A stretch of DNA of 64,000 nt from an uncultured Saprospiraceae bacterium (GTDB taxonomy: Bacteria > Bacteroidota > Bacteroidia > Chitinophagales > Saprospiraceae), in NCBI GenBank assembly GCA_964539805.1, contig CAZIKN010000001.1, positions 73,782 to 137,781 on the forward strand, in the 5' to 3' direction. The notes beneath the pieces are model-generated. The model had not been told where the DNA came from and did no database searches. It saw nothing but the letters and a program-made list of their open reading frames with translations. Made by a program: the position numbers and the translations under genes. Below, in pieces: positions 23,601 to 64,000 of the stretch. The first letter of the stretch is position 1, and each line of letters starts with the position of its first letter.

Positions 23601-25460
23601 CCGTCCAACGGTGATAGCCCAATCGTCAAAGCAACCGAACCGGGCACTTATATCATTACTTTGACGACCAAAAATCAGTTCAATTGTATTGATGTCAAGA
23701 CTATAAATGTCACGTTCGATTCCGTACAAAACATTGATCCAACATTAGTTGTCAATCCCTGCAATGGGCTTTTGGTTAAATTTGAGAACAATAGTGGCAA
23801 AAACGGCACCTGGACATTTGGTGACGGCAAATCCAGTACGGAACCAAGTCCAACACACCTGTATGAAAAAGCCGGAAACTATACCGTAACTTTTGCCGCA
23901 GCAGAAGATTGTGTAAAAAAATTCAGTAAGGAGATTAAAGTTATTGATGTAGAGGCCGTCCAAACCGATTTTAATATTAAGTATAAAGACTGCTCTGACA
24001 AAGCCGAAATACAATTCAATGACGCCACTAAGTTTGCTGCTGTGGGCGTATCATGGGAATGGACCTTTGATCCACCACAGCAAAGCTCATCGCTTCAAAA
24101 TCCAACCATTACTTTCACCAAAGAGGACACTATTAAGGTGCGATTGATCGTAAAAGACAATAATGGATGTTTGGATACCTTGCTGAAAGAGGTAAAAGTG
24201 GATTTCATCGCGGACAAAATTGACAAAGAATTCAAATTCTGCCCCGGTGACTCAATTGAACTGAATAAAGATGGTGCTGTAGTCACGGATATCTATACAT
24301 GGACGTCAAACCCTGCTGATCCTACCTTGGTTAGCAATTTGCCGAATCCTAAGGTATCACCGGTCACAACAACGACTTATAATTTGACTATAATGACACC
24401 GGATAGTGCATGCTCCGTGGATTTCAGTGCAGAAGCCATTGTGATTCCTACGGTAAGTGGCGCATTGCCAAAAGATACCGTACTATGCAATGCCAATCCT
24501 TTCACCATTAATTTGATCTCCAACAACGCCACTAATATCATCTGGTCTGGCAACAAACAATTTGATCCGGTGATTGGTACTGGCAATAGTGTCACGATTA
24601 ATCCTGAGAAAAATGGCGTCTATTATGTAAAGGCCACCAATCAATCAGATTGCCCTTTGTTAGACAGTATTATTGTCAATGATGGTTCAGTAAACATGGA
24701 TCCCGGGTCTAAAGATCAGCGTATTTGCCTTGGAGAAACGGCTATCCTAAACCTTAGCAATTTGGATCCATCTGATATATTAACCTACAAATGGACTCCA
24801 GAGGTGACACCACCTGCCCAACCGGAAGTAAAACCTACCACGGAGACCAAGTATGGCGTTGTGGTTACCAATCAGTTTGGTTGTACTGCTACAGCAGAGT
24901 TTAACGTAGATGTTATTGCTGTAGATGTGGTGGCTTCCATTGACGGTAAAGATACCATTTGTATCGGGGAAACTGCAAAATTGATCGCTACAATCACCAG
25001 CAATAAAACCCCTGTGCAAATAGCCTGGACACCAGCAAATACACTGACGGGTGCCAACACAGCAACACCGATAGCGAAGCCACAGGAAACCACAACCTAC
25101 ACTGTGAGGGTTACCTATGACGATGAACTTTGTCCCGTAGAGGATCAGGTAACCTTGTTCGTGCGTACAGATCAGTGTGTTGAACCCTTTATTTTTGTTC
25201 CCAAGGCATTTACCCCCAATGGGGATGGCAACAACGACCGCTTTGTATTTAGGGGGGTCAACTTGACCGAGGTTGAATTCATTGTATGGGACCGTTGGGG
25301 TGAAAAGGTTTATGAAACCACTGACGTAAATGACCTGGGTTGGGATGGTAGTTACCGCGGCAACAGCCTAACCCCTGATTCGTATGCGTTTTATTTTAAA
25401 GCGCGTTGTGGCAATGGCGCATTTTATGAAAAGAAAGGAAATGTGACATTGCTGAAATAA
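20622..25460 (+). CDS. SprB-repeat / PKD adhesin with T9SS type-B (gliding-motility-associated) C-terminal sorting domain
   Basis: Many SprB repeats (C..G..G.ITL....GTAPY...W ... Y.VTVTDANGCT) and a PKD-like segment (GTWTFGDGKSSTEPSPTHLYEKAGNYTVTF). The C-terminus FVPKAFTPNGDGNNDRF......VWDRWGEKVYET...GWDG matches the type-B CTD. Start taken at MKNGIKHTYR.. (ATG 20622); 20553 or 20604 are possible. Confidence 0.85.
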   Translation: MKNGIKHTYRLVLSFLLIITISAQMAAQVSSPPPCDGPLTIYFSVSYLGCDNPGANAKVIPNCGTLPFSYQWSNGTISAEILNVLPGTYTATVTDAKGLKAIGSVVVPTAPATNLSVSAVINGGACTSGATGSVTLTMNGGTAPYDVKWYTNPNNTNIKNDQSSPFVISNLAPGSYTIVVTDERYCRDTIKAEIKAGLVVTATSSPVTCTNPNAGKITLNIGTPGGTAPYTISGAGPAAITTSTFPFSISNLTAGNYTLTVTDANGCTGTVSSKVETALDVVLTATAPSNPVCGGQDLSINLGNSGIAPYLVSWEGPNGFVGSTTTNTFPVVLKNVPPGNYTVKVTDATGCTGVETTTTGGNPVMQITATATPVSCTDSKAGTITVNFITPGNPNYTLSWSGGSQALSNLPFTISGLSAATYVITITDSKGCTATTTTKVESALDVVLVASAPSNPLCGGSDLKIDLNGFKGTAPYDLAWDGPGQFDGTANDINLPFTLKNVPSGTYTITVTDVTGCTGTETIEIKNTKEPLLIIATGTQVSCQNDKDGTVTLTTVFPGTAPYRVSWSGNEITGALLPLTINNLAPGNYCFTVTDANGCTATACARVETALDVTLTAKTPVLVNCGGVDLEIDINGFKGTLPYKITWDGPGSFDGMQSGVTTLPFVLKNVPSGTYHVTITDATGCSGTETLDVKAGNEPMIIAAVGTQVSCGLDDGMITLTMLSPGTAPYTITWTGGTAVPNATFPFKFNDLKPGEYCFTVTDANGCTATACATVKFALDVKLTVIEGTQLCGGGSLIVDVIGFQGMAPYKIELQGPTSGTKLNVPSLPDTIQGLQPGKYTVILTDKNGCSGLAMATIKGDTMMQVSLAPTDLLCTGNGKDGKITVAISNPKTAPYAIGWNTGSISGVNTNQFPFTIIELEANTYTVTVTDANGCSSTASTTIKGGPVDITLLPTSDVKACIDSTIQLKINNLDPKDLLIFEWTANSTNITITPSNGDSPIVKATEPGTYIITLTTKNQFNCIDVKTINVTFDSVQNIDPTLVVNPCNGLLVKFENNSGKNGTWTFGDGKSSTEPSPTHLYEKAGNYTVTFAAAEDCVKKFSKEIKVIDVEAVQTDFNIKYKDCSDKAEIQFNDATKFAAVGVSWEWTFDPPQQSSSLQNPTITFTKEDTIKVRLIVKDNNGCLDTLLKEVKVDFIADKIDKEFKFCPGDSIELNKDGAVVTDIYTWTSNPADPTLVSNLPNPKVSPVTTTTYNLTIMTPDSACSVDFSAEAIVIPTVSGALPKDTVLCNANPFTINLISNNATNIIWSGNKQFDPVIGTGNSVTINPEKNGVYYVKATNQSDCPLLDSIIVNDGSVNMDPGSKDQRICLGETAILNLSNLDPSDILTYKWTPEVTPPAQPEVKPTTETKYGVVVTNQFGCTATAEFNVDVIAVDVVASIDGKDTICIGETAKLIATITSNKTPVQIAWTPANTLTGANTATPIAKPQETTTYTVRVTYDDELCPVEDQVTLFVRTDQCVEPFIFVPKAFTPNGDGNNDRFVFRGVNLTEVEFIVWDRWGEKVYETTDVNDLGWDGSYRGNSLTPDSYAFYFKARCGNGAFYEKKGNVTLLK
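21240..23240 (+). repeat. four tandem ~501-bp (167-aa) super-repeats, each equal to two SprB repeats, inside the adhesin gene
   Basis: Unit starts read at V-[TS]-C codons 21240, 21741, 22242 and 22746, giving periods of 501, 501 and 504 nt. Units align along their whole length (..APYxxxW...NLxxGNYxxTVTDANGCTxT...VExALDVxLxA..CGG.DL.I....G.APY..WDGPG.F...LKNVPSGTY.xTxTDxTGC.GTET). Confidence 0.8.
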
Positions 25461-49743: not shown

Positions 49744-50853
49744 TCACTCTGTGATTTTTATTTCTACCCGTCTGTTTTGTTCCTGCTCTTTGCCTGACAC
49801 AGCATTGGGAAACAGCATATGATTGTTTTTATAGCCAATAGTACTCATCCGAAGGCTGTCAATACCATTTTGAACTAAATACGAAAATACGGTCTCGGCA
49901 CGCTGTTGTGATAATCCCTGCTTCCACATCGGCTCCTTTTCCATAACGTATTGCTCAGGGGTCAGGCCTTTCATTTTGGGGTACTGCATGCCCTTGGGGT
50001 ATGGCACATTGACATGGCCGCCTATTTCTATTTTCAGTTTTGGGTTTAACTGCATAAATTTCAACACTTTAGGCAACTCTCCTTCCGAAGATTTCAGCAA
50101 AATGGCCGCATCGCCAACAAAAAACAGATCACGCAACACCGCTTTTGCGCCCACTTTGGCAGGCGGAAGTTCGATATTGGGCGACAACTTGTATTTTGCA
50201 TATAATTCGGGACTGCCCAGTACTTTTAGGGCAAAGGACTCAAAGAAAAAATCCTTAGCCACGGCCTCTATTTTGACCACCGTATCCTTGGGCAAACGAA
50301 CGCGGTAATGTCCCGAAGTATCTGTTTGCACGGAATCTTTGCGCGTTTTGTTCCGGAAACTCACCCAGGACTGCACACCATTGCCCGTGCTTTTATCCGT
50401 AACACGCCCGCTCAGGGTGGCCATGGGCACGGTACGCGCGACTTCTACGGTGGCCCTTCGGTTCCGTTGGCGGCCTTCCTCGGTGGCATTTGTTGCTGCG
50501 GGCCGACGCTCACCAAAGGTTTTTACATCTATAATAGTAGCAGCGGGTATGCCCTGTTTCTGAAGGTACTGGCTCACAGCTGCGGCCCTGTTGCGCGCCA
50601 ATACCTCATTGCGATCCGTTTGACCAACGGAATCGGTATGTGCGGTAATGCGCACCGCTTTGGCCGTACTGATTTGGTTAAACAGGCGCACGATTTCGTC
50701 AAGGGTAGATATAGCGGCTCTATCCAAATCGTATTTGCCCGTTGCAAAATAAATTTCTGACGCTTGTGAGTTGTACAAAGAATCAAAGACAGATTGGGCT
50801 GGCAAAAGCATGGCGCGGCACGCAAGCAAAAGAAACAATATGGGATGCTTCAT
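49744..50853 (-). CDS. OmpA-family protein with two OmpA-like domains flanking a CarboxypepD_reg-like domain
   Basis: Signal peptide ..LLPAQ. The first OmpA_C domain is RITAHTDSVGQTDRNEVLARNRAAAV...NRRATVEV. The middle beta-sandwich is LSGRVTDKSTGNGV. The second OmpA-like domain ends NRRVEIKI. Confidence 0.75.
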   Translation of the reverse strand: MKHPILFLLLACRAMLLPAQSVFDSLYNSQASEIYFATGKYDLDRAAISTLDEIVRLFNQISTAKAVRITAHTDSVGQTDRNEVLARNRAAAVSQYLQKQGIPAATIIDVKTFGERRPAATNATEEGRQRNRRATVEVARTVPMATLSGRVTDKSTGNGVQSWVSFRNKTRKDSVQTDTSGHYRVRLPKDTVVKIEAVAKDFFFESFALKVLGSPELYAKYKLSPNIELPPAKVGAKAVLRDLFFVGDAAILLKSSEGELPKVLKFMQLNPKLKIEIGGHVNVPYPKGMQYPKMKGLTPEQYVMEKEPMWKQGLSQQRAETVFSYLVQNGIDSLRMSTIGYKNNHMLFPNAVSGKEQEQNRRVEIKITE

Positions 50854-50854
50854 A

Positions 50855-50911
50855 GGGAATGTGATAATTTATGAAATGTGATAATGTGATAATTTATAAA
50901 ATGTGATGATG
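50855..50911. repeat. cluster of AATGTGATAAT motif copies (GGGAATGTGATAAT...AATGTGATAATGTGATAAT...AATGTGATGATG)
   Basis: Read directly. It begins 2 nt beyond the start codon of the minus-strand OmpA gene (50853) and shares the 14-mer GGGAATGTGATAAT with 2274-2288 and 12533-12547. Confidence 0.9.
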
Positions 50912-51104
50912 TATTTGTGCGAAGATAAAGGTGCAATTTAAGCGCTAAATGCTGCACTTAAAACTTGATACAAGCCAAATAGGCGACCCAAAATCCCGTT
51001 CAGCCACACGTTTTTCCTATTCAGCCAAACTATTTTGCCCCCCCAAAAAAGGGCCTTCACCTTTGCGATACATTAAATTTCACCATCCATTCAACTTTTC
51101 GATT

Positions 51105-51518
51105 ATGACAAACCGATTCATGATTTTTGTGCTTTACTGTTTTCTCACCCTGCCTTTTATGGCCTGCAACAAAAACAACGGGAACCTCGTATCACCCAAT
51201 ACAGGCAAATGGAAGCTAACGTACTTCTGGGACAAAGAGGACGAAACCAACTACTACACCAATTACACTTTTGATTTTGGCAGCAACGGCGCTCTGACAG
51301 CAAGCAAAAATGGCCAAAACTGGGCCGGCACTTGGCAAACGGGCATTGATGACAGCAAAGAGAAAATCATCCTCGATTTTAACGGTTCCATCCCATCCGA
51401 ACTGGAAGAATTGGAAGAAGATTGGCTCATCATCAGCATGAAAGACAATTTCATGCACTTCGAACATACCAGCGGCGGCAACGGCGATACCGATGTGGTC
51501 AAATTTGAAAAAATATAG
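51105..51518 (+). CDS. small hypothetical lipoprotein (lipocalin-like pattern)
   Basis: Signal and lipobox MTNRFMIFVLYCFLTLPFMAC from the internal ATG at 51105. The protein is 137 aa with beta-rich patterning (GKWKLTYFWD...YTFDFGSNG). Confidence 0.5.
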   Translation: MTNRFMIFVLYCFLTLPFMACNKNNGNLVSPNTGKWKLTYFWDKEDETNYYTNYTFDFGSNGALTASKNGQNWAGTWQTGIDDSKEKIILDFNGSIPSELEELEEDWLIISMKDNFMHFEHTSGGNGDTDVVKFEKI

Positions 51519-51570
51519 GCACAGATGGGGAGACAGCTCAAGCAATGCTCCTTTTCATTTCCCGCTTTTC

Positions 51571-51602
51571 AGGGCGCGTTTCACCCAACGCGCCCTTTTT
51601 TT
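51571..51602 (+). terminator. rho-independent terminator
   Basis: AGGGCGCGTT, loop TCACCC, AACGCGCCCT, then TTTTTTT. Confidence 0.8.
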
Positions 51603-51966
51603 ACTCATTTATGTTAAAATTTATCACAATATAAAAGACCGTTTTTGGAAAATCAAAAAAAAGTGTCCAAAAAACGGCAAGCAATTTCAAGGTAAGGAAT
51701 AACCAAAAACATCAAAAATTACTTTTTTTAACTATGTTTCATCTATCTTCTTGGTATGCTTTTAACAAAACATTAAAATATATTAAAATTTGTATGCTAA
51801 AACCCGTCCAAAATTATTAATTTCAGGCAGCCCACCTTTGCACCGCAATGTTGCTACTGTTGCACATTAATCATCACCGGATGAAGCCCACAGCGTAAAT
51901 ATGTATAGTGCTTTTTACAAAGTGATCTCATCCCTAAACCGTTTCATTTTTTTAATACTTTTCATT

Positions 51967-52551
51967 ATGAAAAAATTATTTTTTGTTCCTTTCGTGCTTA
52001 TGTTACTGTTTGCTGCCTGTTCCAAAGACAGCAACATTATCCCCGCTAACGAAAATGTTTTGAATGCCCAGGAAGAGCACATTTCGTATGTTGTCCCTTC
52101 CACAGATGGTACCACGGATCGCAGCACCTGCAATTTGTATATGAAGATTGCTTTCCGCAAGACAGCAACTTACTCAGGGTTAGCGGCAGATCTTTTGCCT
52201 TGTAACCGCTTTTTTCGTGTAATGCGTAACAATGGAGGTGTCATTACCCAGATATTTCCTGCAAGCGGGTATTTCGGTTCAGGGACATCTACTTCAACGG
52301 GCAACAATTTGTCACTTGTAGTACCTAACGGCGGTCAATACTATGTAGAGTTTGACACTGTTGTTGACCCGACCAATACGTTCAACGAGAATACTTATGT
52401 GTTCTTCTCCGACAATATTCTGGTGCAGATTGACCCATTGACCCATGCTGATGTAAGTTGGTCACATCATGTCCAAATCGGTCCGGCTGCAACGCCTGAT
52501 GTTGCGTCATCCAACGCCAATGTGAGTGCTACTTGCGTGGTTACGCCGTAA
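51967..52551 (+). CDS. hypothetical lipoprotein
   Basis: MKKLFFVPFVLMLLFAAC lipobox from the internal ATG at 51967. I do not recognise a family. Confidence 0.5.
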   Translation: MKKLFFVPFVLMLLFAACSKDSNIIPANENVLNAQEEHISYVVPSTDGTTDRSTCNLYMKIAFRKTATYSGLAADLLPCNRFFRVMRNNGGVITQIFPASGYFGSGTSTSTGNNLSLVVPNGGQYYVEFDTVVDPTNTFNENTYVFFSDNILVQIDPLTHADVSWSHHVQIGPAATPDVASSNANVSATCVVTP

Positions 52552-52585
52552 TAACCCACCATACAACAGAGCAACACTGCGAAGT

Positions 52586-52625
52586 GAAGGCCATGCCGTT
52601 TATACGGTGTGGCCTTCTTTTTTTG
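52586..52625 (+). terminator. rho-independent terminator
   Basis: GAAGGCCATGCCG, loop TTTATA, CGGTGTGGCCTTC (13-bp stem including two G-U pairs), then TTTTTTT. Confidence 0.75.
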
Positions 52626-52745
52626 CCTATTTCTTGCACAACGCAAATAGGCTGCGTTGCAGACGATATATATTGGCTCCTCATTAACGTACCTTTGTGG
52701 ATTGGTGCCTTCCAAGCACAATTACCTTAAAACAAACAACTAACG

Positions 52746-55700
52746 ATGAGAAGCCTGTTTTTTACCTGTTTATTTTTGGTGCATTTACCCGTTTTATACG
52801 CCCAGTTTGGGAACACGCCAATAATCATCAGCCGCAGCACCAATGCTTCACTCTTCAGCGTAACCCCTGCCGATCTGGATGATGACGGAGATACCGATAT
52901 GCTCGCCACCCATGAAAACGCTATTGTTTATTATGAAAATCTGGACGGAAAGGGCACTTTTTCAAATGACAGGGTTTGGATGGATGCGGATTTTCAGGTT
53001 TTTACCTCTATTTACCTCCGCACAGTGTTCCAGGATTTGGATGCCGATGGCCGGCTCGATGTGGCGGCTGACCGTTATTGGCGAAAAAACCTTGGGGGCG
53101 GCAACTTCGCACCACGCGCCACAGCCTTTAGCAGCAGCCTTGATGCGCTGTGTGATGTAAACGGCGACAACTTACCCGATGCCATTAACCATGATGCATC
53201 CAAAATATACTGGCAACGCAACCTCGGTAATGGCAGTTTTGCCGCAAGGGTCACCATCAAAAATGCCGCTTCTGCCAATATTTTTGAGGCCAAAGACCTC
53301 AATTTTGATGGCAAAATGGATTTTGTAGTCAATCAGATTAGTGGCTGCTTTTGGTATAAAAACCTGGGAACCAATCAGTTTGACACCCTTCGGCTGTTGT
53401 CGTTCCAGCCCAACAATATCAAGTTTTTGGACATTGACACTGATGGTAAATACGATGTTTTTTCCTCAGCAGGCAGCTCCATTTATTGGCACGAACTCGA
53501 AGCAGATGGAAAATTGTCCCTCATCCAAACCGTTACCACCACTCAATTTGACGGCGGCGCACTCCTCATAGGCGACATGAACGCTGACGGATTTGCTGAT
53601 ATTTTTGCAGGCAATACAGGCGGTTCCGCCAATCGGGCACAGTATTTTCCCTTCATTCCGGCTACTGGCAGATTCTCCGGCACACCAGTTAGCCACAACA
53701 CGTATCTGATTCGTCATGGTTGGGCGACATTCACCAATATTGACAATGACCCTGAGCCCGATATTTTGGCTGCTACCACCTATGGCTTTGGTTGGATGAA
53801 AAAATTATCGCCCACGCAGTTCTCTGCCGTGTTCAATATCACTCAAAATTTGGGCCTGCCAAAAGCAATCGAATCCTCCGACTTTGAAAACGATGGCGAT
53901 ATGGATCTGTTTACCAATGGTTTCGTGTTACGGCATTTGGGCAATGGTAACTACGCAGAAAAAGCCAGAACAACCTCTTCCGGTAGCCGTACTTTTTATG
54001 CTGACCTGGACGGTGATGAACGGAAAGACCTCGCCCGTCCCCTTGGCGATTCCATTTCATGGCGCAAAAACATGGGCAGCGGACAATACGGGCCTGCGGT
54101 TTTGCTGCCCGGCTTGGTTACCTCCTGCAAGCAGATCGGCGGCGGCGACCTCGACCAGGATGGGGATATTGACCTTTTTGCAGCCAATGGAACGGACGCC
54201 ATTGCCGTGAACGCGCGGTTTTATTGGTTTGAAAATGATGGAAAAGGTAATTTCACGGCCCATCTGCTCGAAACGGACATCCAACTCTGCTCAGGAGCCT
54301 TTTCATTAGATGTGAACGAAGATGGCAAATCAGACATGGTTTTGACCTTTTTCAACGGTAAGGCTACTCGTTGGTACCCCAATCTCGGCAATGGCAATTT
54401 TGACACTTACCGCCCACTTTTGGGCAATCTGCCCTCGCCGACAAATGTTAATCAATCAATGGTCACAGACCTGGATGCAGATGGGCGCCTTGACTATTTG
54501 TATTCCAACCAAATCACCACCCAAAGCAAGGTAGCCTGGTTCCGAAACCTCGGCAACTCAACTTTTGCGCCAGAGCAATCGCTCGTAACCATGAATCATC
54601 AAGGCTCCTATGCAACGCCTTATTTTGCTGTTTTTGATGCCACCTTGGATGGGCTGCCTGACCTCATTGTTTCTGACAACTATTGGAACCGTTTTCACTT
54701 GGTGCCCAGCGCGGGAGGCGGCAAGTTTGGAGCAGGCAAAGTGGTGTTTGATGCAGATGGTTATGGTGCTTTTTTTGGCGTGGCAGGGCATGATGTGGAC
54801 GGTGACGGGCGCCTGGATCTCGTATTTGGCAACCGCACGGAGAGCATTAACACACAGGGCTTTTACCAACTTTCCTGGCTGGGCAATCTGCACCCAAAGC
54901 CGGTGGTGCCATTTTCCGTACATGAAAAATCCGCCACCTGCTCAGATAATCAAACTCCCGCCAATGCCAATGATGATTTCCTGACTATTTCCCTAAAAAT
55001 CAAGGGATTGGATAATAGTTCCACCCGGTTTGTCGTGACCGACCTGAACAACAACACCGTGGTTGACACCTTTGATTATGACAAAAACATTTCTTTCGTT
55101 TTGCCTCCCGGAAGCGCAGGCGATGGAGTCCTGAAAAAATTCAAACTGCAAGACCTCTTGGTAAAAGATAGCTTTCTGGTACTGACGTTTGAAAGTGGCA
55201 GCCCTTGCTCGGTGTCTGCCCCAACCGAAATATCACTGCTAAACTTCCGGGTAGAATGCCGTGACAATAACACGCCCAACAACGCCAAAGATGACAAATT
55301 GGTGATATGGTTCACGCCACGGATCATCAATCCGCCTGTTGCAAGTACCCAATTCAACATCAACTCAAATCTTGGCTGGCCCATTGACACGGCAAAATTT
55401 AATCCGTCGGGTAAATATAATCAAGAAAACTATTTTGAACTGCCCGATGGCAGTGCAGCCGTTGAAGGCAAACTAATCCTGACTATACAGGATAGCAAAA
55501 ACTTGACAATAATCAAACATTTTCTCAGTAAAGTACCCGGTACTTGTTCTGGCGCCCCCCTGCCATGTCCTTTTTCTGTCAATTACCACAGCCAAACTGA
55601 AATTGACTCCTTTCCAATCAAATACCCGGGGTGTCGTGTGCTGGAAGGCGACCTCACCCTAAACGAGGTGTTGCCTGCGGCTGATGCACCAAGCATCGAA

Positions 55701-56687
55701 AACCTGTTGGGTTTTAAGGAAATCATAGAGCTGCGTGGTGACTTGAACATCAGCCACACCCATCTGAAAAACCTGAAGGGCCTTGATTCCCTGCGGCTCA
55801 TCGGACGCAGTTTATCTGTCTTGTTTTTTAACAGTCCCGAACTAAATTCACTAAATGGGCTTAACCAACTGCGCAGCATCGGGCAAGACTTGTGGCTTTC
55901 TGACACTATAAATACATTGAAGCATCTCGATGGCCTTGACCATTTAGACAGCATTGGCAGAGACCTGACGCTTTTCCAAATGAGGGGAATAAAAAACTTT
56001 AAAGGGATGGAAAAATTGAAAACTGCTGGTATCTGGACCTACCAATGCGATGCCCTTGAAAGCTTAGAGGGCCTTGAGAACCTGGATCAGGCCACAGCCA
56101 TTGCCATGCAGGACAATACCTCTTTGAAGACCCTGAAAGGCCTGGAAAACCTAAAAACAATATCGGGCGGCCCCCTATCTCTATTACTATTGGTCAAAAA
56201 CCCGCTGCTGGACGACATTTCGTCCCTGAATCACGACATGTTTATCGAGGCCGTACAGATAGAGGACAACCCCAAATTGAGCCTTTGTGCCGTAAAAGCC
56301 ATTTGCCAGTATTTGAAAAACCATGATCCGCAATTAACCACAATTACCGACAACCTGCTGGGCTGCAATTCAACTACAGAAATTTTAGATGCCTGCACGT
56401 CCTCGACTGCCGATTTTATTCAACATTTATCCTTGAAAATTTTCCCCAACCCTGTTTCCGATAACCAGCCGCTCCAAATCACTTTGGAAAATGATTTCAC
56501 AGGCACGGTCAAATTTGACCTGTTGAGCTTGGATGGGCGGGTGTTGGCGTCGTTTTGTGAAGAAAAAACAGCGCGGGTATTAAGCGTAAGCAGGGTTTTG
56601 AATCCTGCCTATGTTGATAGCGCGGCGTTTTTCCTGCGCGTTTCGGATGGGAAAAGATCGGCTACGCAATTAGTTATAAAAATGTAA
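52746..56687 (+). CDS. T9SS cargo paralog 1: 14 FG-GAP/VCBS loops + two Cys/TP/DD modules + L-domain/LRR-like solenoid + type-A CTD
   Basis: Signal peptide ..LPVLYAQ and 14 DxDxDG-type loops (DLDDDGDTDML ... DVDGDGRLDLV). The solenoid has ~23-aa repeats (LKGLDSLRLIGRSLSV.., LNGLNQLRSIGQDLWL.., LEGLENLDQATAIAMQ..). The C-terminal LKIFPNPVSDNQPLQITL....LLSLDGRVL....FFLRVSDGKRSATQLVIKM matches the Por secretion tail pattern. Confidence 0.8.
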   Translation: MRSLFFTCLFLVHLPVLYAQFGNTPIIISRSTNASLFSVTPADLDDDGDTDMLATHENAIVYYENLDGKGTFSNDRVWMDADFQVFTSIYLRTVFQDLDADGRLDVAADRYWRKNLGGGNFAPRATAFSSSLDALCDVNGDNLPDAINHDASKIYWQRNLGNGSFAARVTIKNAASANIFEAKDLNFDGKMDFVVNQISGCFWYKNLGTNQFDTLRLLSFQPNNIKFLDIDTDGKYDVFSSAGSSIYWHELEADGKLSLIQTVTTTQFDGGALLIGDMNADGFADIFAGNTGGSANRAQYFPFIPATGRFSGTPVSHNTYLIRHGWATFTNIDNDPEPDILAATTYGFGWMKKLSPTQFSAVFNITQNLGLPKAIESSDFENDGDMDLFTNGFVLRHLGNGNYAEKARTTSSGSRTFYADLDGDERKDLARPLGDSISWRKNMGSGQYGPAVLLPGLVTSCKQIGGGDLDQDGDIDLFAANGTDAIAVNARFYWFENDGKGNFTAHLLETDIQLCSGAFSLDVNEDGKSDMVLTFFNGKATRWYPNLGNGNFDTYRPLLGNLPSPTNVNQSMVTDLDADGRLDYLYSNQITTQSKVAWFRNLGNSTFAPEQSLVTMNHQGSYATPYFAVFDATLDGLPDLIVSDNYWNRFHLVPSAGGGKFGAGKVVFDADGYGAFFGVAGHDVDGDGRLDLVFGNRTESINTQGFYQLSWLGNLHPKPVVPFSVHEKSATCSDNQTPANANDDFLTISLKIKGLDNSSTRFVVTDLNNNTVVDTFDYDKNISFVLPPGSAGDGVLKKFKLQDLLVKDSFLVLTFESGSPCSVSAPTEISLLNFRVECRDNNTPNNAKDDKLVIWFTPRIINPPVASTQFNINSNLGWPIDTAKFNPSGKYNQENYFELPDGSAAVEGKLILTIQDSKNLTIIKHFLSKVPGTCSGAPLPCPFSVNYHSQTEIDSFPIKYPGCRVLEGDLTLNEVLPAADAPSIENLLGFKEIIELRGDLNISHTHLKNLKGLDSLRLIGRSLSVLFFNSPELNSLNGLNQLRSIGQDLWLSDTINTLKHLDGLDHLDSIGRDLTLFQMRGIKNFKGMEKLKTAGIWTYQCDALESLEGLENLDQATAIAMQDNTSLKTLKGLENLKTISGGPLSLLLLVKNPLLDDISSLNHDMFIEAVQIEDNPKLSLCAVKAICQYLKNHDPQLTTITDNLLGCNSTTEILDACTSSTADFIQHLSLKIFPNPVSDNQPLQITLENDFTGTVKFDLLSLDGRVLASFCEEKTARVLSVSRVLNPAYVDSAAFFLRVSDGKRSATQLVIKM

Positions 56688-56740
56688 GAAGTTGAAAAAC
56701 AAAAATTTAACACAATGCGAATATCAATTTGCCTATTCTT
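56349..56740 (+). repeat. junction block copy 1 (3' CTD coding + stop + 27-nt spacer + first 26 nt of the next gene)
   Basis: Hand alignment with 60495-60886 at a constant offset of 4146 nt. There are no indels and I count 7 mismatches in 392 positions. Confidence 0.9.
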
Positions 56741-59700
56741 GACCTGTTTTTTTGTTGTACCCATACAATATTTATACGCCCAATTCGGTAATACGCCCCA
56801 AGTACTCACCCAAAGCACCAACGCCAACCAACTCGGCATTTGGACCGCTGACCTTGATAGCGACGGAGATACCGACTTACTGAGTGCGCAATTAAACAGC
56901 TTGATCTGGTATAAAAATGACGGAACGGGCAACTTCTCGAATGACCTCGAGATCATGACCGCCGACATGTCCAATTCCATCGGTTTTCTTACCGGGGCTT
57001 TTGAAGATATCAACACTGACGGACTACCCGATCTTGTTTTCGACCGCGCCTGGCGGCGCAACCTTGGTAACGGTCAGTTCGCTCCACAGGCCACAATCCT
57101 GACCAATACGCTGGCTACATTGTGTGATGTAAACTCGGATGGATTGCCTGACGCCATCACCATAGAATATACCAAATTTTATTGGCAGCGCAACCTCGGC
57201 AATGGCAGCTTTGCCACCCGCCAAACGTTGCGCATAGTAAACGGTGCAGATGTTTACAACCTTAAAGTTGATTTGGATGCCGACGGGCGGCAGGACTTTT
57301 TTGCGCGGCACAACAATGCTTTTTTCTGGTATAAAAACAGGGGAAACAGCCAGTTTGACACCGTCCGGCTGCTCTCCACCTTCCCTGGGGCCGTGTCGGC
57401 CACCGATGTTGAAGGCAACGGCAAAACCGATCTTCTGCTTGGCACTGGCGGACAACTTTTGTGGTATGAATACGATGCAGCAGGGAAGCCAACGCTTCGG
57501 CAAACCTTAACTCAATATTACAGCGGAGAAATCAGTTTCGGCGACCTCGATGCCGACGGCGATCGAGACCTTTTTGTGGGCAGTGTGGGCACGGTGAACG
57601 GGCATCGAGCCAAATATTTCACCTTCGACTCTTCTAAAGGACTGTTTGATCTTGCACCGAAAAACCACAACATTTACCTGAACGACCACTATTACGCAGA
57701 GGTTCTGGATGTAAACGGCGATACCCAACCCGATATTTTGGTCGGTGATGTTGGCGGTGGCAGGCAGCTGGGTTGGTTGAAAAACCTCGCACCGGGCAGT
57801 TTCTCCAATTTTAACAACATCAACCGCAAATTCGACTTGCCCTACGAAATAGAAATTGCCGACCTCGAAAACGACGGCGACATGGATATTTTTACCGTAG
57901 GCATCGTGCTCGAAAACCTCGGCGGCGGCCAATATGCCGAAAAACGCCCCGCAACACCCAGTTCAGGCAGCCGCGCCTTCTCCGGTGACCTCGACGGTGA
58001 TGGGCTGAAAGATTTGGCTTTGCCGCTCGGAGACTCCATTTCCTGGCGAAAAGGCTTGGGCAATGGCCAATTTTCAGCACCCAAACTCCTCCCTGGCCTT
58101 GTCACCTCCTGTAAACAAGTAGGAGGAGCTGACCTCGACAATGACGGAGACCTCGATCTTTTTGCCGCCAACGGAACCGATGCGGTGGTGGCAAACGCCC
58201 GATTTTATTGGTTTGAAAATGATGGAAAAGGCAACTTCAAAGGACATTTGCTCGAAACAGGCCTTCAGTTTTGCGCCGCAGCCCTCGCTTTGGATGCCAA
58301 TGAGGACGGACTTATGGACATAGGGCTGTTGTTTTTCAATGGGTATTCACCACGTTTATACCTTAATTTAGGCAAAGGAAATTTCGCGCCGCCAACGGGT
58401 TTGTTTCCCGCCGGAACACCCTCACCAAATAATGTAAATCAGGATTTGCTGACGGATCTGGACGGTGACGGGCGGCTGGACTATGTTTATTGCACCCGCG
58501 ATTGGGGGCTAACCAAAGTGGCTTGGTACCAAAATTTGGGCGCGGCAGGCTTCAGCGCGGAAAAATCACTGGCGACCATGGCGCATCAAGCGGTTTATGC
58601 CGTGCCGCGTTTTTGTGTGTTTGATGCCAATTTGGATGGCATCACCGACGTGGTGGTAAGCGACAATTATTGGAACCGCTTTTTATTTGTCAAAGGTCTG
58701 GGCAACAGTGCATTTGCCTCTGCCACAACCGTTTATGATGAGCCTAACTTCGGAAATTTTTACGGCGTAGCCGCGCATGACGTTGACGGTGACGGGAAAT
58801 TGGACATCGTTTACGGCTCCGACACCGATTACCTTGGCAATTTCAATGGCTACAACCGTCTTTCGTGGCTGAAAAACCTGCATCCAACTCCTGCTCCAGG
58901 GCTGCAAATAGCCTTCAATTCAAGCAGTTGCTACGACAATGATACCCCGCTTGATGCCACCGACGACAGTCAGGTTTTGAATTTCAAAGTTGTACCTATT
59001 GGCAATGCAATGGCTTCCAACCAATATGTTTTGTTCAAAGAGAGCAGCCCGACACCGCTTGACACCTTTTCTTATAATGTCTTGACAAATTATGCCCTAT
59101 CACCTGGTTCGGCAGGTTTTTCCATTTTCGAGGCGTACTCGTTCCGTGATTTGGCAAATCCTGATTTGAAAAAAGTATTTTACCCGGTTAGCGTGGGCAA
59201 TTGTTCGCCCGCCGCACCGCCCGGAATCGGGATCCATACCTTAAAAACTTCCTGCGACGATACCGGAACCCCCGCTGATCCAACCGACGATCGTGTCCGA
59301 ATCGAGGTCAGCGCAGGGTTATACAACGGCTTGCCTGGACAAAATTATTACACAATCTATGCTAACCTCGGTTTACCAGCCAACATTTTTGACGAAACGA
59401 ACATCGGGTTTTACACTTTCCCGGAAGTGTTTTTGTTGCCAGAAGGCAGTGCCACCGTACCGGGGAAACTGCATTTGACCTTGCGCCACCAGTTGGACAC
59501 AAGCGTTATCAAACACTTGTTTATTGAAAATCCCGGAACCTGTGCCACTACACCGCCACCTTGTCCAAGAGATATTTTGTACACCAAACAAAGCCAGATT
59601 GACCTTTTCCCGCTGACTTACCCAACTTGTCGGATCATAGAAGGTTCGGTAATTTTAAAACAAAGTACGCTCCCGGGGGCTGTGCCAATCAAAAACCTGG

Positions 59701-60833
59701 ACGGTTTTGCAAACCTTGACATCATCCGGGGTAACCTGGAAATAGAAAGAACACAACTTCAAGATTTACAGGGTTTTCAACATTTGGACTCACTCGGCGG
59801 CAATTTTTTCTTGTATGAAAACCCGGGTTTGCAACGCTTGCAAGGCATAAATAGCCTAAAATCGGTAGGCGGCAGTATTTGGATAAGCAACGCGCCTATC
59901 TTGGAGAACCTAAATGGATTAGATGCCTTAAAGCATCTCGGAATCGGACTTAGCCTGCAAAGTCTGCCTGCTTTGAAGTCATTGGATGCCCTACAAAACC
60001 TGACCAATGTACCCGGTTCGCTTTGGATAACAGGCTGCGATGCCTTAGCTTCACTGACAGGCTTGCAACATTTGGAAAACATAGGTACGGCAGGCGATCC
60101 CTTTTCTGGCCAAATAGTTATTGCCGACTGTCCTTTGTTGGAAAATTTGACTGGTTTGGAAAAATTAAAATCCATCTCCGCACTGCTTTTGCAAAAAAAC
60201 ACTGGCTTGAAAAATCTCTCCGGAGTGGTCAATCTGGATACTATTCGCTTGGATATCAGGCTATTTGACAATCCTTTACTCGATAATATGGATGCGCTGG
60301 CAAGCATAAAATCAGCCAAATTGGAAAACCTTTTGCTCCGAAACAATGATGCGCTCACCAACCTCAACAGCCTCAAAAATATGGATTTTTCGAGGCTCCA
60401 AAATCTTGAAATCACCAATTCAGAGCTGCTTTCGGGCTGTGTACAGGCCAATATCTGTGCCTATCTGGGCAGCGGTGGCAAAGCAACCGTGAGCGACAAC
60501 CTGCTGGGCTGCAATTCAACTACAGAAATTTTAGATGCCTGCACGTCCTCGACTGCCGATTTTATTCAACATTTATCCTTGAAAATTTTCCCCAACCCTG
60601 TTTCCGATAACCAGCCGCTCCAAATCACTTTGGAAAATGATTTCACCGGCACGGTCAAATTTGACCTGTTGAGCTTGGATGGGCGGGTGTTGGCGTCGTT
60701 TGGGGAAGAAAAAACAGCGCGGGTATTAAACGTAAGCAGGGTTTTGAATCCTGCCTATGTTGATGGCGCGGCGTTTTTCCTGCGCGTTTCGGATGGAAAA
60801 AGATCGGCTACGCAATTAGTTATAAAAATGTAA
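56715..60833 (+). CDS. T9SS cargo paralog 2 (same architecture as paralog 1, longer solenoid)
   Basis: Signal peptide ..IQYLYAQ and 14 DxDxDG loops (DLDSDGDTDLL ... DVDGDGKLDIV). The solenoid runs from CRIIEGSVIL through ..LEITNSELLSGC. The type-A CTD is nearly identical to that of paralog 1. Confidence 0.8.
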   Translation: MRISICLFLTCFFVVPIQYLYAQFGNTPQVLTQSTNANQLGIWTADLDSDGDTDLLSAQLNSLIWYKNDGTGNFSNDLEIMTADMSNSIGFLTGAFEDINTDGLPDLVFDRAWRRNLGNGQFAPQATILTNTLATLCDVNSDGLPDAITIEYTKFYWQRNLGNGSFATRQTLRIVNGADVYNLKVDLDADGRQDFFARHNNAFFWYKNRGNSQFDTVRLLSTFPGAVSATDVEGNGKTDLLLGTGGQLLWYEYDAAGKPTLRQTLTQYYSGEISFGDLDADGDRDLFVGSVGTVNGHRAKYFTFDSSKGLFDLAPKNHNIYLNDHYYAEVLDVNGDTQPDILVGDVGGGRQLGWLKNLAPGSFSNFNNINRKFDLPYEIEIADLENDGDMDIFTVGIVLENLGGGQYAEKRPATPSSGSRAFSGDLDGDGLKDLALPLGDSISWRKGLGNGQFSAPKLLPGLVTSCKQVGGADLDNDGDLDLFAANGTDAVVANARFYWFENDGKGNFKGHLLETGLQFCAAALALDANEDGLMDIGLLFFNGYSPRLYLNLGKGNFAPPTGLFPAGTPSPNNVNQDLLTDLDGDGRLDYVYCTRDWGLTKVAWYQNLGAAGFSAEKSLATMAHQAVYAVPRFCVFDANLDGITDVVVSDNYWNRFLFVKGLGNSAFASATTVYDEPNFGNFYGVAAHDVDGDGKLDIVYGSDTDYLGNFNGYNRLSWLKNLHPTPAPGLQIAFNSSSCYDNDTPLDATDDSQVLNFKVVPIGNAMASNQYVLFKESSPTPLDTFSYNVLTNYALSPGSAGFSIFEAYSFRDLANPDLKKVFYPVSVGNCSPAAPPGIGIHTLKTSCDDTGTPADPTDDRVRIEVSAGLYNGLPGQNYYTIYANLGLPANIFDETNIGFYTFPEVFLLPEGSATVPGKLHLTLRHQLDTSVIKHLFIENPGTCATTPPPCPRDILYTKQSQIDLFPLTYPTCRIIEGSVILKQSTLPGAVPIKNLDGFANLDIIRGNLEIERTQLQDLQGFQHLDSLGGNFFLYENPGLQRLQGINSLKSVGGSIWISNAPILENLNGLDALKHLGIGLSLQSLPALKSLDALQNLTNVPGSLWITGCDALASLTGLQHLENIGTAGDPFSGQIVIADCPLLENLTGLEKLKSISALLLQKNTGLKNLSGVVNLDTIRLDIRLFDNPLLDNMDALASIKSAKLENLLLRNNDALTNLNSLKNMDFSRLQNLEITNSELLSGCVQANICAYLGSGGKATVSDNLLGCNSTTEILDACTSSTADFIQHLSLKIFPNPVSDNQPLQITLENDFTGTVKFDLLSLDGRVLASFGEEKTARVLNVSRVLNPAYVDGAAFFLRVSDGKRSATQLVIKM

Positions 60834-60886
60834 GAAGTTGAAAAACAAAAATTTAACACAATGCGAATATCAATTTGCCTATTTTT
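60495..60886 (+). repeat. junction block copy 2
   Basis: See 56349-56740. It includes the identical spacer GAAGTTGAAAAACAAAAATTTAACACA and the ATGCGAATATCAATTTGCCTATT start of the following gene. Confidence 0.9.
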
Positions 60887-63317
60887 ACTCATTAATTTTT
60901 GCACAAAAACTGAAGCCCAATTTTCGTCAACAATCCAAAACCTGACGGAGTACAGCAGCGCAAAAATGCACGGTATTTCGCTCCATGACCTCGATGCGGA
61001 CGGCGATTTGGACATCCTGGCGACGTTCCCGGACGGTGTGATCTTGTTGGAAAACAAAAGCGCAGCTAATTTTTCAGGTGAAAAAAATCAGTTTGTTTTT
61101 GATCTGCCGCTGACGGGCGGGCGCAGGCCGGCGCGTTTTGCCGATTTGGACGGCGATACACTGCCTGATTTGGCGGTCAATAAATCGTGGCGAAAAAATG
61201 TAGGCAAGGGACAATTCTCCACGCCTGTCGAAGTTTTTAAAAATCCGCTCGCCGCGCTATGCGATGTGGACGGCGACGGTTTTCCCGATGCAATCCACCA
61301 TAATGCAAGCAATCTTTTTTGGCAAAAAAACACCCAAAACGGCACGTTTTCTCCTTTTTCAACCAATATCGGTTCGGGTGCAAACTGGCAGCTTTGGGCC
61401 GTGGCAGACCTCAATTCCGATGGGTTTCAGGATTTAGTTTTGAGCCGGAATTTCCGGTTTTATTGGTACAAAAATTTGAAAAACGGCACTTTCGAGGGCA
61501 TTCAACTTGACGCAAGTTTCCCAAAAGAGGCCATCACCGAAGACTTGGACGGTGACGGGCGGGTGGATTTGCTGGCTGGTTTTGGCAATCAAATACGCTG
61601 GCTGAAATTCGATTCGCTTGGGGCCTGGACGCTGCATCAGGCCATTACGGTTTCGACATTTCAGGGCGGGCTGGCGGTCGGTGATTCGGACGGCGACGGC
61701 GACCGGGATTTGGTGGCCGGCGATTTAAGCGACAACTCTAACAGCCGTCTGCGCTGGTTTTTGATGCAGCCAAACGGACTGTTTTCGACCACCGCAACGG
61801 GCGGTATCGCGGCTTACCCTGATGGCTACAACCTGAATATTTGTGCGCTTGGCGACCTCAATGGGAACGGGGAAATTGACCTCGCTGTCGGCTCATCCAT
61901 CAAAGAAAATGGCGTATCTATCTCGTTTAATGGTTCTATTGCAGGGAGTTTTCAACCGTTGGTTTTGGCGGGCTTACCAATCGGAAACATCCGTCAAATA
62001 CATTCAGTGGACCTGGATTTGGACGGCGACAGCGACCTGGTGGCCGCCAATTTTCTGCTTGAACGTACTGGAATCGGGCAACTTGCTCCGCGCCGGCGAC
62101 TCAATATGCCCAACCAAAAAGTGCAATTTGCTGACCTTAACGGCGATACCTTGCCCGATGCAGTTTATCCCTTTGGCAACTCAATTGCATGGCAACGGAA
62201 CCTGGGAAATTTTCAATTTGACACCCAAATCAAACTCGACGAACTCATTTTTTTGGCTAAAGACGTGGGCATTTCCGACCTTGACAACGACGGCGACCTC
62301 GACCTTTTTGCGGCCTGTGGAACCGACGCGCCGAATGGAACCGCCGTTGCCCGTTGGTACAAAAACGATGGTGCAGGCCATTTTTCGGGATTCGAATTGG
62401 GGCAGGGCATCAAATTTTGTAATAATGTATTTCCACTTGATTTCAATGAAGATGGGCGAATGGATCTCGTTTTCATGCGCGGCGCGCCCGATTCTGACCT
62501 ATGGTTTAAAAATTGGGGCGGAGGAAATTTTTCGACGGCTCAAAATTTTTGGGCTGCCGGAACCCTCGAACCTGACGGCAATTTGAACCAAAAAATGCTC
62601 ATTGACCTCAACAGCGATGGCCGCTCCGATCTCATTTGCTGCACCCGCGATTACGGCATCGTGTCGGTTTATTGGTACCAGAATCTGGGCGATGGCGCGT
62701 TTTCAGACCGAAAAATCTTGCTGAACATCAGTCAGAATGCTTCAGCAGGCGGGCTGTTTTTCACTGTTTTGGATACGGATGGCGATAATAGATTGGATGT
62801 AGTGGTATCACAGGATTATGCCAGAAAAATTGTGTTTTTGAAAAACCTTGGCAACGGCGTTTTTGCGTCAGCGAAAGATGTTGTGGATGACCCGAGCGGT
62901 TTTAGTGGTTTTGATGCAATTTCAAATTACGATGTGGACGGCGACGGTCGGCTCGACCTCGTTTTTGGCAATGCCAACGCACAAAACGGGGGCAAAAACG
63001 CGCTTTCGTGGCTCGGTGGCACGGGTTTAAGTTTCGGTTTTGAACCTTTTCAAAACACTGATTTTCAAGTATTTCCGAATCCTGTTTCCGAAGGTCAGCC
63101 GCTCCAAATCACTTTGGAAAATGATTTCACCGGCACGGTCAAATTTGAGGTATTGAGCTTGGATGGGCGGGTGTTGGCGGCGTTTGGGGAAGAAAAAACA
63201 GCGCGGGTATTAAACGTAAGCAGGGTTTTGAATCCTGCCTATGTTGATCGCGCGGCGTTTTTCCTGCGCGTTTCGGATGGGAAAAGATCGGCTACGCGTT
63301 TGGTCATCACATATTAA
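60861..63317 (+). CDS. T9SS cargo paralog 3: 14 FG-GAP/VCBS loops joined directly to the type-A CTD (no solenoid)
   Basis: The signal peptide MRISICLFLL.. shares its first 8 codons with paralog 2. There are 14 DxDxDG loops (DLDADGDLDIL ... DVDGDGRLDLV). The CTD is FQVFPNPVSEGQPLQITLENDFTGTVKFEVLSLDGRVL...RLVITY. Confidence 0.8.
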   Translation: MRISICLFLLINFCTKTEAQFSSTIQNLTEYSSAKMHGISLHDLDADGDLDILATFPDGVILLENKSAANFSGEKNQFVFDLPLTGGRRPARFADLDGDTLPDLAVNKSWRKNVGKGQFSTPVEVFKNPLAALCDVDGDGFPDAIHHNASNLFWQKNTQNGTFSPFSTNIGSGANWQLWAVADLNSDGFQDLVLSRNFRFYWYKNLKNGTFEGIQLDASFPKEAITEDLDGDGRVDLLAGFGNQIRWLKFDSLGAWTLHQAITVSTFQGGLAVGDSDGDGDRDLVAGDLSDNSNSRLRWFLMQPNGLFSTTATGGIAAYPDGYNLNICALGDLNGNGEIDLAVGSSIKENGVSISFNGSIAGSFQPLVLAGLPIGNIRQIHSVDLDLDGDSDLVAANFLLERTGIGQLAPRRRLNMPNQKVQFADLNGDTLPDAVYPFGNSIAWQRNLGNFQFDTQIKLDELIFLAKDVGISDLDNDGDLDLFAACGTDAPNGTAVARWYKNDGAGHFSGFELGQGIKFCNNVFPLDFNEDGRMDLVFMRGAPDSDLWFKNWGGGNFSTAQNFWAAGTLEPDGNLNQKMLIDLNSDGRSDLICCTRDYGIVSVYWYQNLGDGAFSDRKILLNISQNASAGGLFFTVLDTDGDNRLDVVVSQDYARKIVFLKNLGNGVFASAKDVVDDPSGFSGFDAISNYDVDGDGRLDLVFGNANAQNGGKNALSWLGGTGLSFGFEPFQNTDFQVFPNPVSEGQPLQITLENDFTGTVKFEVLSLDGRVLAAFGEEKTARVLNVSRVLNPAYVDRAAFFLRVSDGKRSATRLVITY
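63096..63297 (+). repeat. partial third copy of the CTD block
   Basis: Aligns without indels to 60612-60813 (offset 2484) with a handful of mismatches. Similarity stops before the stop codon, so this copy lacks the spacer and signal-peptide part. Confidence 0.85.
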
Positions 63318-63356
63318 CATCCCCCCGGATATCACTTTTTCAACAAAGAATAAAAA

Positions 63357-64000
63357 ATGAGGTATTTATTTTACTTTTTGGCAGTATTTTCATTATCTAC
63401 TCCATCACTGCAAGCACAGTATTGCCACCCGAAGGACTCGCTCGAACTTGTCAAATTTTACATTGCCGTAAACGGTCAAAACTCAACGCTAAACTGGAAA
63501 CTTTCCCAACCGGTGAGCAGCTGGGAATGGGTTGCATTGACCCCTCAAGGCCGTGTGAAATCGCTTTGGCTTATCGGCAAAAACTTGAGCGGCGAATTGC
63601 CTGCCGACCTCAATTTACCTAATTTGACCTTGTTGGGATTGGGAAACAACAAGATTGGGGGAACACTCCCAAAGTTTGAATTATTGCCTAACCTACGGGA
63701 GTTGGAACTGCCGAACAACCGACTGACAGGCAATATACCTAATTATAATCAACCCTTTTTGCAAGACCTTGAACTGAACCATAACCAACTAACGGGCAAC
63801 ATCCCAAAATTCAAGCTTCCCTTTTTGATTTTCCTCTCTCTTAACCACAACCAACTGACGGGCGAAATCCCAGCCTTTGATACGCCTTTGCTCGGCGGAC
63901 TGCATTTGGAACACAACCAACTGACGGGCAGCATTCCTGATTTCCAAAATATGCCCAAACTGCAATGGCTGGTAGGTGACTTTAATCAGTTGAGCGGCAA
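63357..64000 (+). CDS. secreted leucine-rich repeat protein with plant-type (LxxLxLxxNxLtGxIP) repeats, 3' end outside window
   Basis: Not in the ORF track because there is no stop within the window. My translation from ATG 63357 starts with the signal peptide and cap: MRYLFYFLAVFSLSTPSLQAQ YCHPKDSLELVKFYIAVNGQNSTLNWKLSQPVSSWEWVALTPQGRVKSLWLIGKNLSGELP. LRR units of 23-24 aa follow: ..LELPNNRLTGNIP.., ..LELNHNQLTGNIP.., ..LSLNHNQLTGEIP.., ..LHLEHNQLTGSIP... Confidence 0.8.
   Translation, partial: MRYLFYFLAVFSLSTPSLQAQYCHPKDSLELVKFYIAVNGQNSTLNWKLSQPVSSWEWVALTPQGRVKSLWLIGKNLSGELPADLNLPNLTLLGLGNNKIGGTLPKFELLPNLRELELPNNRLTGNIPNYNQPFLQDLELNHNQLTGNIPKFKLPFLIFLSLNHNQLTGEIPAFDTPLLGGLHLEHNQLTGSIPDFQNMPKLQWLVGDFNQLSG

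Follow-up and report, generated by a model that had tools for sequence, protein, structure and literature searches.

Near-identical 3' ends of neighbouring predicted T9SS cargo genes in a Saprospiraceae bacterium and their probable origin by gene conversion

Genes of the array and their predicted sorting domains

The window analysed here is a 64,000-nt stretch of a contig from an uncultured Saprospiraceae bacterium. It contains three co-oriented neighbouring FG-GAP/VCBS propeller genes, A, B and C, each with a predicted T9SS type-A sorting domain (CTD) at its end. All three lie on the forward strand and are complete, with a start codon, a signal peptide and an intact reading frame in each. Gene A (52746 to 56687, 1313 aa) encodes a signal peptide, an FG-GAP/VCBS propeller, a Recep_L/LRR region, a linker and the CTD, and was matched by PF13517 at 162 bits and also by PF01030. 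Gene B (56715 to 60833, 1372 aa) has the same architecture, with a body 45% identical to that of A in protein. In gene C (60861 to 63317, 818 aa) the propeller is fused straight to the CTD without the LRR region, and the body shares 34-40% identity with those of A and B. The C-terminal ends read -LVIKM or -LVITY, and a Pfam search found no protease domain in any of the three proteins. Upstream of A, at 52586 to 52617 on the forward strand, lies a strong terminator-like hairpin with a 14 bp stem and a T run after it. No comparable hairpin was present in the A/B or B/C spacer, and the array is therefore probably one transcription unit. Downstream on the same strand, the 5' part of an LRR protein gene begins at 63357 and runs past the window end at 64000; at two loci in relatives (L044 and L046) its orthologues have a CTD of the same type, and it is homogenised with the CTDs of their neighbours. 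From their sequences, A, B and C are predicted to be old tandem paralogues for secreted or surface FG-GAP propeller proteins.

The CTD alone scored 23.3 bits against TIGR04183 (Por_Secre_tail), barely above the cutoff of 23, with a match over model positions 1-71 of 72, the same span as in gene A. Whole proteins scored 17-19 bits, under the cutoff. At E<=0.01, TIGR04183 matched 17 of the 18 CTDs of this gene family. An AF2 model of the CTD had seven strands and low model confidence (mean pLDDT 62). The best PDB fold match to this low-confidence model was the NucA CTD in the T9SS translocon (8glk_D; target-normalised TM 0.64), a weak match at E 3e-3, and the RemA CTD (8gl6_D) ranked 13 among the fold matches with TM 0.62, also at a weak E-value. 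Elsewhere in the window a PorP/SprF-family T9SS membrane protein is encoded at 16026 to 17105 on the forward strand (TIGR03519, 111.5 bits, cutoff 90.55) and a type-B cargo protein at 20553-25460 (TIGR04131, 51.4 bits, cutoff 35). Together these two genes indicate that a T9SS is present in the genome, an assignment drawn from the 64-kb window, outside which the core translocon genes lie. The CTDs of A, B and C are accordingly classed as T9SS type-A sorting domains, predicted to act as secretion tags.

A shared block across two gene junctions

The original prediction held that a 392-bp block occurs twice in the array at a fixed offset of 4146 nt, without indels and with 7 mismatches, that its 5' boundary is sharp, that it crosses a gene boundary and that a third copy is limited to the CTD. 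Exact alignment bore out all of these points. The first copy (56349 to 56740) and the second (60495 to 60886), both on the forward strand, differ at 7 of 392 positions with no indels (98.2% identity), the mismatches falling at 56501, 56556, 56558, 56584, 56619, 56651 and 56738 in coordinates of the first copy. The first copy takes in the last 112 codons of A (LRR-cap linker and CTD), the TAA stop, the 27-nt spacer (GAAGTTGAAAAACAAAAATTTAACACA, 56688 to 56714) and the first 26 nt (8.7 codons) of B, and the second takes in the equivalent parts of B and C. The B/C spacer (60834 to 60860, forward strand) is identical to the A/B spacer over its 27 nt. At the 4146-nt offset, 50-nt windows gave identities of 0.14-0.40 immediately upstream of the block and 0.10-0.30 immediately downstream, which is chance level, so that the 3' boundary is sharp as well as the 5' boundary. 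The 5' edge lies within the LRR-cap motif, off any domain border and at homologous codons in A and B, a position that fits a process acting on DNA. The third copy (63096 to 63297, forward strand) covers the CTD core only, being 97.0% identical to the B copy (6/202 mismatches) and 95.5% identical to the A copy (9/202 mismatches). It starts inside the CTD and stops about 6 codons ahead of the stop codon, so its ends are unlike those of the 392-bp block, and in the CTD codons flanking it identity drops to about 65-73%.

Divergence was compared inside and outside the block. Inside it, NG86 estimates were dS 0.032 and dN 0.014, whereas in the A and B bodies dS was 3.4 in the propeller and saturated to the point of being incomputable over the whole pre-block region, with dN 0.41-0.54. 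The aligned bodies share about 53-57% nucleotide identity. Third-position identity was 0.97-1.0 in the block, and only the terminal windows exceeded 0.7. The best-conserved stretch of the bodies, which starts at 54108, has 87% amino-acid identity and a third-position identity of just 0.33. The claim that synonymous and non-coding sites are conserved far above the rest of the genes thus stands, as does the claim that selection on the protein would not explain it; sharp edges and a tract that crosses a gene boundary exclude protein-level selection by inspection. In a permutation test with 2000 column permutations of the A-B codon alignment, the longest perfect run was 153 nt and the maximal segment score 301, against a permuted maximum of 28 in both cases. 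Runs and scores for B-C and A-C were likewise far above their own permutations, which rules out chance.

The array and its sorting domains in relatives

Relatives were available as MAGs and short contigs, of which one or more (L004) break off within a CTD. Orthologues of B with 72-77% amino-acid identity were found in the Saprospiraceae MAGs L001, L002 and L004, and comparison of bodies between orthologues gave 77% amino-acid identity for B (with L001_B), 67% for C (L044_C) and 60% for A (L004_A). An NJ tree and identity matrices, built for CTDs and bodies from the window together with loci L001-L008 and L044, grouped the bodies by orthology and the CTDs by genome. Nucleotide identity among CTDs of the same genome was 91-97% in the window and 81-85% in L044, where it included an LRR protein with an unrelated body; in L007, CTDs attached to unrelated bodies were 85% identical. 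Window CTDs were 63-75% identical to those of other genomes. A search of a metagenome contig collection with the exact junction 30-mer returned no match. A protein search with the 112-aa block returned 2 matches and missed the source proteins themselves, which makes the count no guide to how rare the CTD is.

The make-up of the array varies between relatives, and junction relics are present. An A-like gene followed by a B-like gene across a spacer of about 25-27 nt is intact in L004, while L001 and L002 keep a CTD or a CTD relic with the spacer upstream of B'; on this comparison the A-like/B-like order with its short spacer is taken to be ancestral. The B-C adjacency was seen in no relative: other DNA follows the B orthologues in L001, L002, L045 and L046, and a GH43 gene lies upstream of the C orthologue in L044. 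The signal peptide of C orthologues also begins differently (MLLRLLFCF). In L002 and L045 about 100 nt of the CTD 3' end are kept upstream of downstream genes although the gene body is gone, L010 has a decayed CTD upstream of B', L046 retains a relic of the A/B junction left after rearrangement, and L006 and L009 contain whole-gene tandem duplications. L044 and L046 have adjacent complete genes; homogenisation there reaches no further than the stop codon, and the spacers are different.

Gene conversion as the probable origin, and competing explanations

The near-identical 3' ends of A, B and C very likely arose by repeated non-reciprocal homologous recombination, that is, gene conversion. The CTD-coding segment would have been overwritten repeatedly from a neighbouring copy, presumably by RecA-type conversion as far as the enzymology can be inferred, with the outcome that the CTDs of one genome stay near-identical and the gene bodies diverge. 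The latest tract would have been the 392-bp one, running from the LRR-cap linker across the CTD, stop codon and spacer to a point 26 nt into the next gene, and the A/B and B/C junctions would owe their identity to it. The CTD core of C would have been homogenised by another tract, of about 202 bp, whose different end points show that there were at least two separate tracts. B remains homologous to A immediately beyond the 3' end of the block, and this, with the differing starts of C orthologues, hints at copying from the A/B junction to the B/C junction. The opposite direction is suggested by the CTD differences: at the six coding differences between A and B, C agrees with B at four and with A at one, and all three differ at one. 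An additional patch copied from C to B was considered, as six of the seven A/B mismatches lie within the 202 of 392 nt shared with C, and was rejected as non-significant (binomial p ~0.07). Because there is little DNA homology on either side of the 392-bp tract, micro-homology, and not classical conversion, may have resolved one or both of its ends.

The original prediction had offered recent gene conversion or unequal crossing-over. Recent non-reciprocal recombination is upheld by the dS of 0.032 and the identical spacer, but unequal crossing-over alone cannot be the origin, because other genomes contain a separate orthologue for each of A, B and C. A broader version of this reading makes the repeat the scar of a single structural event (unequal crossing-over, junction duplication or Campbell-type integration of a B/C cassette via the CTD) with no conversion between resident genes. 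The X-B-X topology, with 392-bp direct repeats around 3754 bp, is what such an event would leave, and the B-C adjacency missing from every relative, the tandem duplications in L006 and L009 and the rearranged A/B junction in L046 are in keeping with it. We nevertheless regard it as improbable, since the ancestral A-like/B-like order (intact in L004, with relics in L001 and L002) means that B is no recent insertion, and a crossover in the CTD would not put the spacer and first 9 codons of B onto C, whose orthologues start MLLRLLFCF. The independent tract ends of the third copy and the repetition of CTD homogenisation in unrelated arrays also count against it.

An assembly artefact, either one consensus placed at two repeat copies or a chimeric MAG contig, is very improbable. 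The 153-nt perfect run is longer than common assembler k-mer sizes and the relatives come from MAGs and short contigs, one of which breaks off in a CTD, but 7 sites separate the two copies and 6-9 sites set the third apart from them, every reading frame is intact, the contig passes through three copies with unique flanks, and the same phenomenon recurs at lower identity in independent assemblies of other species. Least credible, to the point of being negligible, is selection acting on a function of the nucleotide sequence itself, for example a structured RNA, a regulatory element or the antisense ORFs at 56609-57061 and 60755-61057. The spacer probably holds the translation-start context of the next gene, and the CTD 3' end that outlasts its gene body in L002 and L045 would suit such a function. 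However, identity of the segment between species is no more than 63-75%, which shows no sign of constraint at the nucleotide level, and in relatives the homogenised tracts stop by the stop codon and leave spacers that differ. A structured RNA or known RNA family was dismissed, as no Rfam family matched at E<=1 in 50000-64000 and the RNA fold of the block was ordinary (z-score -0.54). The antisense ORFs have only the block in common, use TTG starts and were set aside as unsupported.

The idea of a portable joint, through which recombination could add, delete or swap whole cassettes, has indirect support only. The joint is physically plausible, given direct repeats of 392 bp at 98% identity, and fits the array differences and junction relics in relatives. 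In L044 and L046, however, tracts end by the stop codon and spacers differ, so the extension across the junction looks like a one-off and not a designed module. We consider it doubtful that the CTD segment of this lineage, and here the whole CTD-stop-spacer-start junction, is a shared recombination module that shuffles, loses or duplicates T9SS cargo genes, with the CTD relics of about 100 nt in L002 and L045 and the decayed CTD of L010 kept for the expression signals of the next gene. A programmed cassette or antigenic-variation locus of the pilE/pilS, vls or msp2 type was rejected: all three genes are complete, and no recombinase, integron or phase-variation gene was found among the genes in 37004-64000.

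Comparable patterns have been described in other bacteria. In the outer-membrane protein genes babA/babB and homA/homB of Helicobacter pylori, the 5' and middle portions cluster across strains but the 3' segment is strongly similar within a genome, which was attributed to gene conversion between paralogues (Pride & Blaser 2002, as summarised in PMC3960876). As in the array here, the homogenised 3' part encodes an export or anchoring module in that account, but the bab/hom loci are dispersed, the module is a beta-barrel and not a T9SS CTD, and the portion of PMC3960876 that deals with them mentions no tract that runs on over an intergenic spacer into the gene beyond. Tannerella forsythia has KLIKK proteases, encoded by clustered T9SS cargo genes with a near-identical C-terminal extension and CTD and differing N-terminal bodies, according to the passages of PMC4404884 devoted to them. 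The same passages report that these repeats confused the original genome assembly, propose that existing or horizontally acquired protease genes were fused to shared SP and extension sequences, and contain no synonymous-site analysis; the text of PMC4404884 uses neither the word 'recombination' nor the word 'duplication'. The KLIKK bodies are described there as different protease classes ending in -KLIKK, whereas the array here has FG-GAP paralogue bodies (and an LRR protein in relatives) and a CTD ending in -LVIKM. With ends of -LVIKM or -LVITY and no protease domain, membership in a KLIKK-type cargo array was rejected and the system is an analogue only. For the gingipains and HagA of Porphyromonas gingivalis, also Bacteroidota T9SS cargo genes with common modular C-terminal parts, homologous recombination and gene conversion have been invoked for domain rearrangement (PMC5266723), but that work deals with adhesin modules and with allelic exchange between strains at dispersed loci, and not with a CTD and junction homogenised within a tandem array (PMC5266723).

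The process is of a known kind, concerted evolution by intragenomic gene conversion, and the case is clean but ordinary, with no new mechanism. Its value lies in being a very clean and quantifiable example in a bacterial tandem array. The case shows that CTD trees are no guide to the history of the genes, and annotators and assemblers should be aware that near-identical 3' modules in T9SS cargo arrays break or mis-join short-read assemblies. Through the 392-bp direct repeats the 4146-bp B unit could be lost or duplicated, and its copy number is expected to be unstable.

Tandem T9SS cargo genes and the block at their junctions

The three tandem propeller genes A (52746-56687, 1313 aa), B (56715-60833, 1372 aa) and C (60861-63317, 818 aa) are co-oriented, and neighbouring ORFs are separated by 27 nt at both the A/B and B/C junctions. 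Each begins with a signal-peptide-like N-terminus and contains a long FG-GAP/VCBS propeller (PF13517, 162-195 bits), and A and B carry a Recep_L/LRR region. The last ~80 residues of all three proteins matched TIGR04183, the T9SS type-A sorting domain, over the full model. Scores were 17-19 bits in the whole proteins and 23.3 bits for the C-terminal sorting domain (CTD) alone (cutoff 23), and 17 of the 18 CTDs of the A/B/C gene family were matched. An AF2 model of the CTD, of low to moderate confidence (pLDDT 62), contained seven strands. Among PDB folds it came closest, with a weak E-value, to 8glk_D (TM 0.64 by target), the CTD of a substrate in complex with the T9SS translocon; another translocon-bound substrate CTD, 8gl6_D, ranked 13th. 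A strong terminator-like hairpin (52586-52617) precedes A and no comparable site was found in the A/B or B/C spacer, suggesting that A, B and C are likely co-transcribed.

Exact pairwise alignment of 56349-56740 with 60495-60886 gave 7 mismatches over 392 nt with no indels at a fixed offset of 4146, and the coordinates, mismatch counts and gene geometry of the original prediction were all correct. At this offset, identity in 50-nt windows was 0.14-0.40 in the upstream flank and 0.10-0.30 in the downstream flank. In both A (at Asp1202) and B the block's 5' edge falls on a homologous codon within the Cys-containing cap at the end of the LRR region, and coincides with no domain border. From there the block runs through the linker and the CTD to TAA, crosses the 27-nt spacer and takes in the next gene's ATG with the 23 nt after it, so that the B and C proteins both begin MRISICLFL. 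A third copy at 63096-63297 spans 202 nt and has 6 mismatches to the B copy and 9 to the A copy; identity dropped to ~65-73% in the CTD codons flanking it on both sides. One codon (56619/60765/63249) reads AGC, GGC and CGC, encoding Ser, Gly and Arg in A, B and C; elsewhere the CTDs are near-identical.

Elsewhere in the window, a PorP/SprF-family gene, a PorE/OmpA-like gene and a type-B T9SS cargo of 1635 aa, which has periodic ~250-nt repeats with the motif …YTVTVTDA.GC, are grouped at 16026-25460. This is a second, distinct T9SS cargo locus, whose CTD has not been homogenised with those of A, B and C. Other repeats were also present. The motif AATGTGATAAT was found 11 times, always on the + strand, where 0.04 copies would be expected; it forms short arrays of 8-nt period at three intergenic spots (2221-2288, 12536-12546 and 50858-50893), one of them between the divergent genes 49744-50853(-) and 50949-51518(+). 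These arrays may serve as binding sites for a regulator or represent a small repeat element. A 126-nt unit is present in four tandem copies (7232-7800, 62-71% identical) within ORF 6314-8065, a TPR-repeat protein by NCBIfam.

Recombination versus selection

Synonymous divergence was compared inside and outside the block. The A and B bodies share ~45% protein identity with dN of 0.41-0.54 and saturated dS, while within the block dS was 0.032 and dN 0.014. In a sliding-window comparison of A and B, third-position identity exceeded 0.7 in the terminal windows only. The best-conserved stretch of the bodies, which starts at 54108 and has 87% amino-acid identity, showed a third-position identity of 0.33, and codons were identical at just 38% of its identical residues. 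In a permutation test on the codon alignments the longest perfect A-B run was 153 nt, and none of 2000 shuffles gave a run longer than 28. The 27-nt spacer is non-coding and identical at both junctions. No RNA family match was found for the block, and its predicted fold was ordinary, with no unusual RNA structure found. The low dS within the block relative to the saturated bodies, together with the identical non-coding spacer, argues for recombination rather than selection on the protein, as originally proposed; that interpretation is correct and the feature is real.

At the six coding differences between the A and B copies, C agreed with B at four and with A at one, and all three differed at one. 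The resemblance between B and A continues just past the block's 3' end (repeat D10), and C orthologues begin with a different signal peptide. The block copies have diverged by 1.8%. The signal-peptide regions of A (52753-52846) and B (56731-56824) share 70% DNA identity and look alike (…LYAQFGNTP), a likeness that may go back to an earlier conversion tract at these genes' 5' ends. All B orthologues start MQK…LLCFFILEKA.AQ, except for the more distant L007_B (MKK…) and the copies of locus L006.

Array remodelling in relatives

The comparison set comprised 16 loci from Saprospiraceae MAGs and three metagenome or SRA contigs. By its relatives the window belongs to Saprospiraceae. Array order was A'-B' in L004, C'-D-LRR-BNR in L044 and B'-LRR-A' in L046. 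L006 and L009 carry B1-B2 tandem duplicates (11113-14594 and 16092-19570; 11476-14560 and 16069-19150) that are 74-76% identical over 3.1-3.5 kb, indicating that whole-gene duplication happens in this family. In L044 and L046, which have adjacent complete genes, no homogenised tract extends past the stop codon, and each junction has its own spacer and next-gene start, suggesting that the run-on of the tract across a spacer and into the following gene is specific to the window genome.

L046 also carries a 73-nt, 90%-identical copy of the spacer and first ~20 B' codons (157-229 and 9943-10015), which sits past the A' stop codon, is followed by a stop and is what a rearrangement left of an ancestral A/B junction. 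CTD 3' relics of ~100 nt precede B' and an unrelated WG-repeat/TonB_C gene in L002 (9863-9972, 15217-15316) and L045 (5745-5840, 15970-16068, 17470-17561), and a further relic in L010 (914-1030) has two stop codons. The relics in these three loci abut the next gene's start, the body of the CTD-bearing gene having been lost, and L002 has a DUF1016_N ORF between B' and one relic. Array make-up is fluid among relatives, and the varied orders and relics point to recombination at or near these junctions having reshaped the arrays.

Concerted evolution of the sorting domains

By amino-acid identity the bodies clustered by orthology, with the window B body 74-77% identical to L001_B and L002_B, C 67% to L044_C and A 60% to L004_A. 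The CTDs clustered by genome. The three window CTDs share 91-97% nucleotide identity among themselves and only 63-75% with any other genome. Three L044 genes, encoding a C orthologue, a paralogue of 1035 aa and an LRR protein whose body is unrelated, have CTDs that are 81-85% alike. In L007 the CTD of a B orthologue is 85% alike to that of a 667-aa protein unrelated to it.

The closest analogues are H. pylori babA/babB and homA/homB, whose 3' segments are homogenised within a strain (PMC3960876), the Tannerella forsythia KLIKK proteases, which are encoded in a cluster and have nearly identical CTD-containing extensions (PMC4404884), and P. gingivalis gingipains and HagA, where modularity is driven by recombination (PMC5266723). 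A literature text search returned no paper describing concerted evolution specifically for T9SS CTDs; the single hit was, by its title, a phylogenetic study of T9SS components. The mechanism behind the block is standard, and the block adds one more case of a process already known. Bodies that sort by orthologue while CTDs sort by genome are the classical signature of concerted evolution, which recurs across the lineage, and the window block is simply the most recent event.
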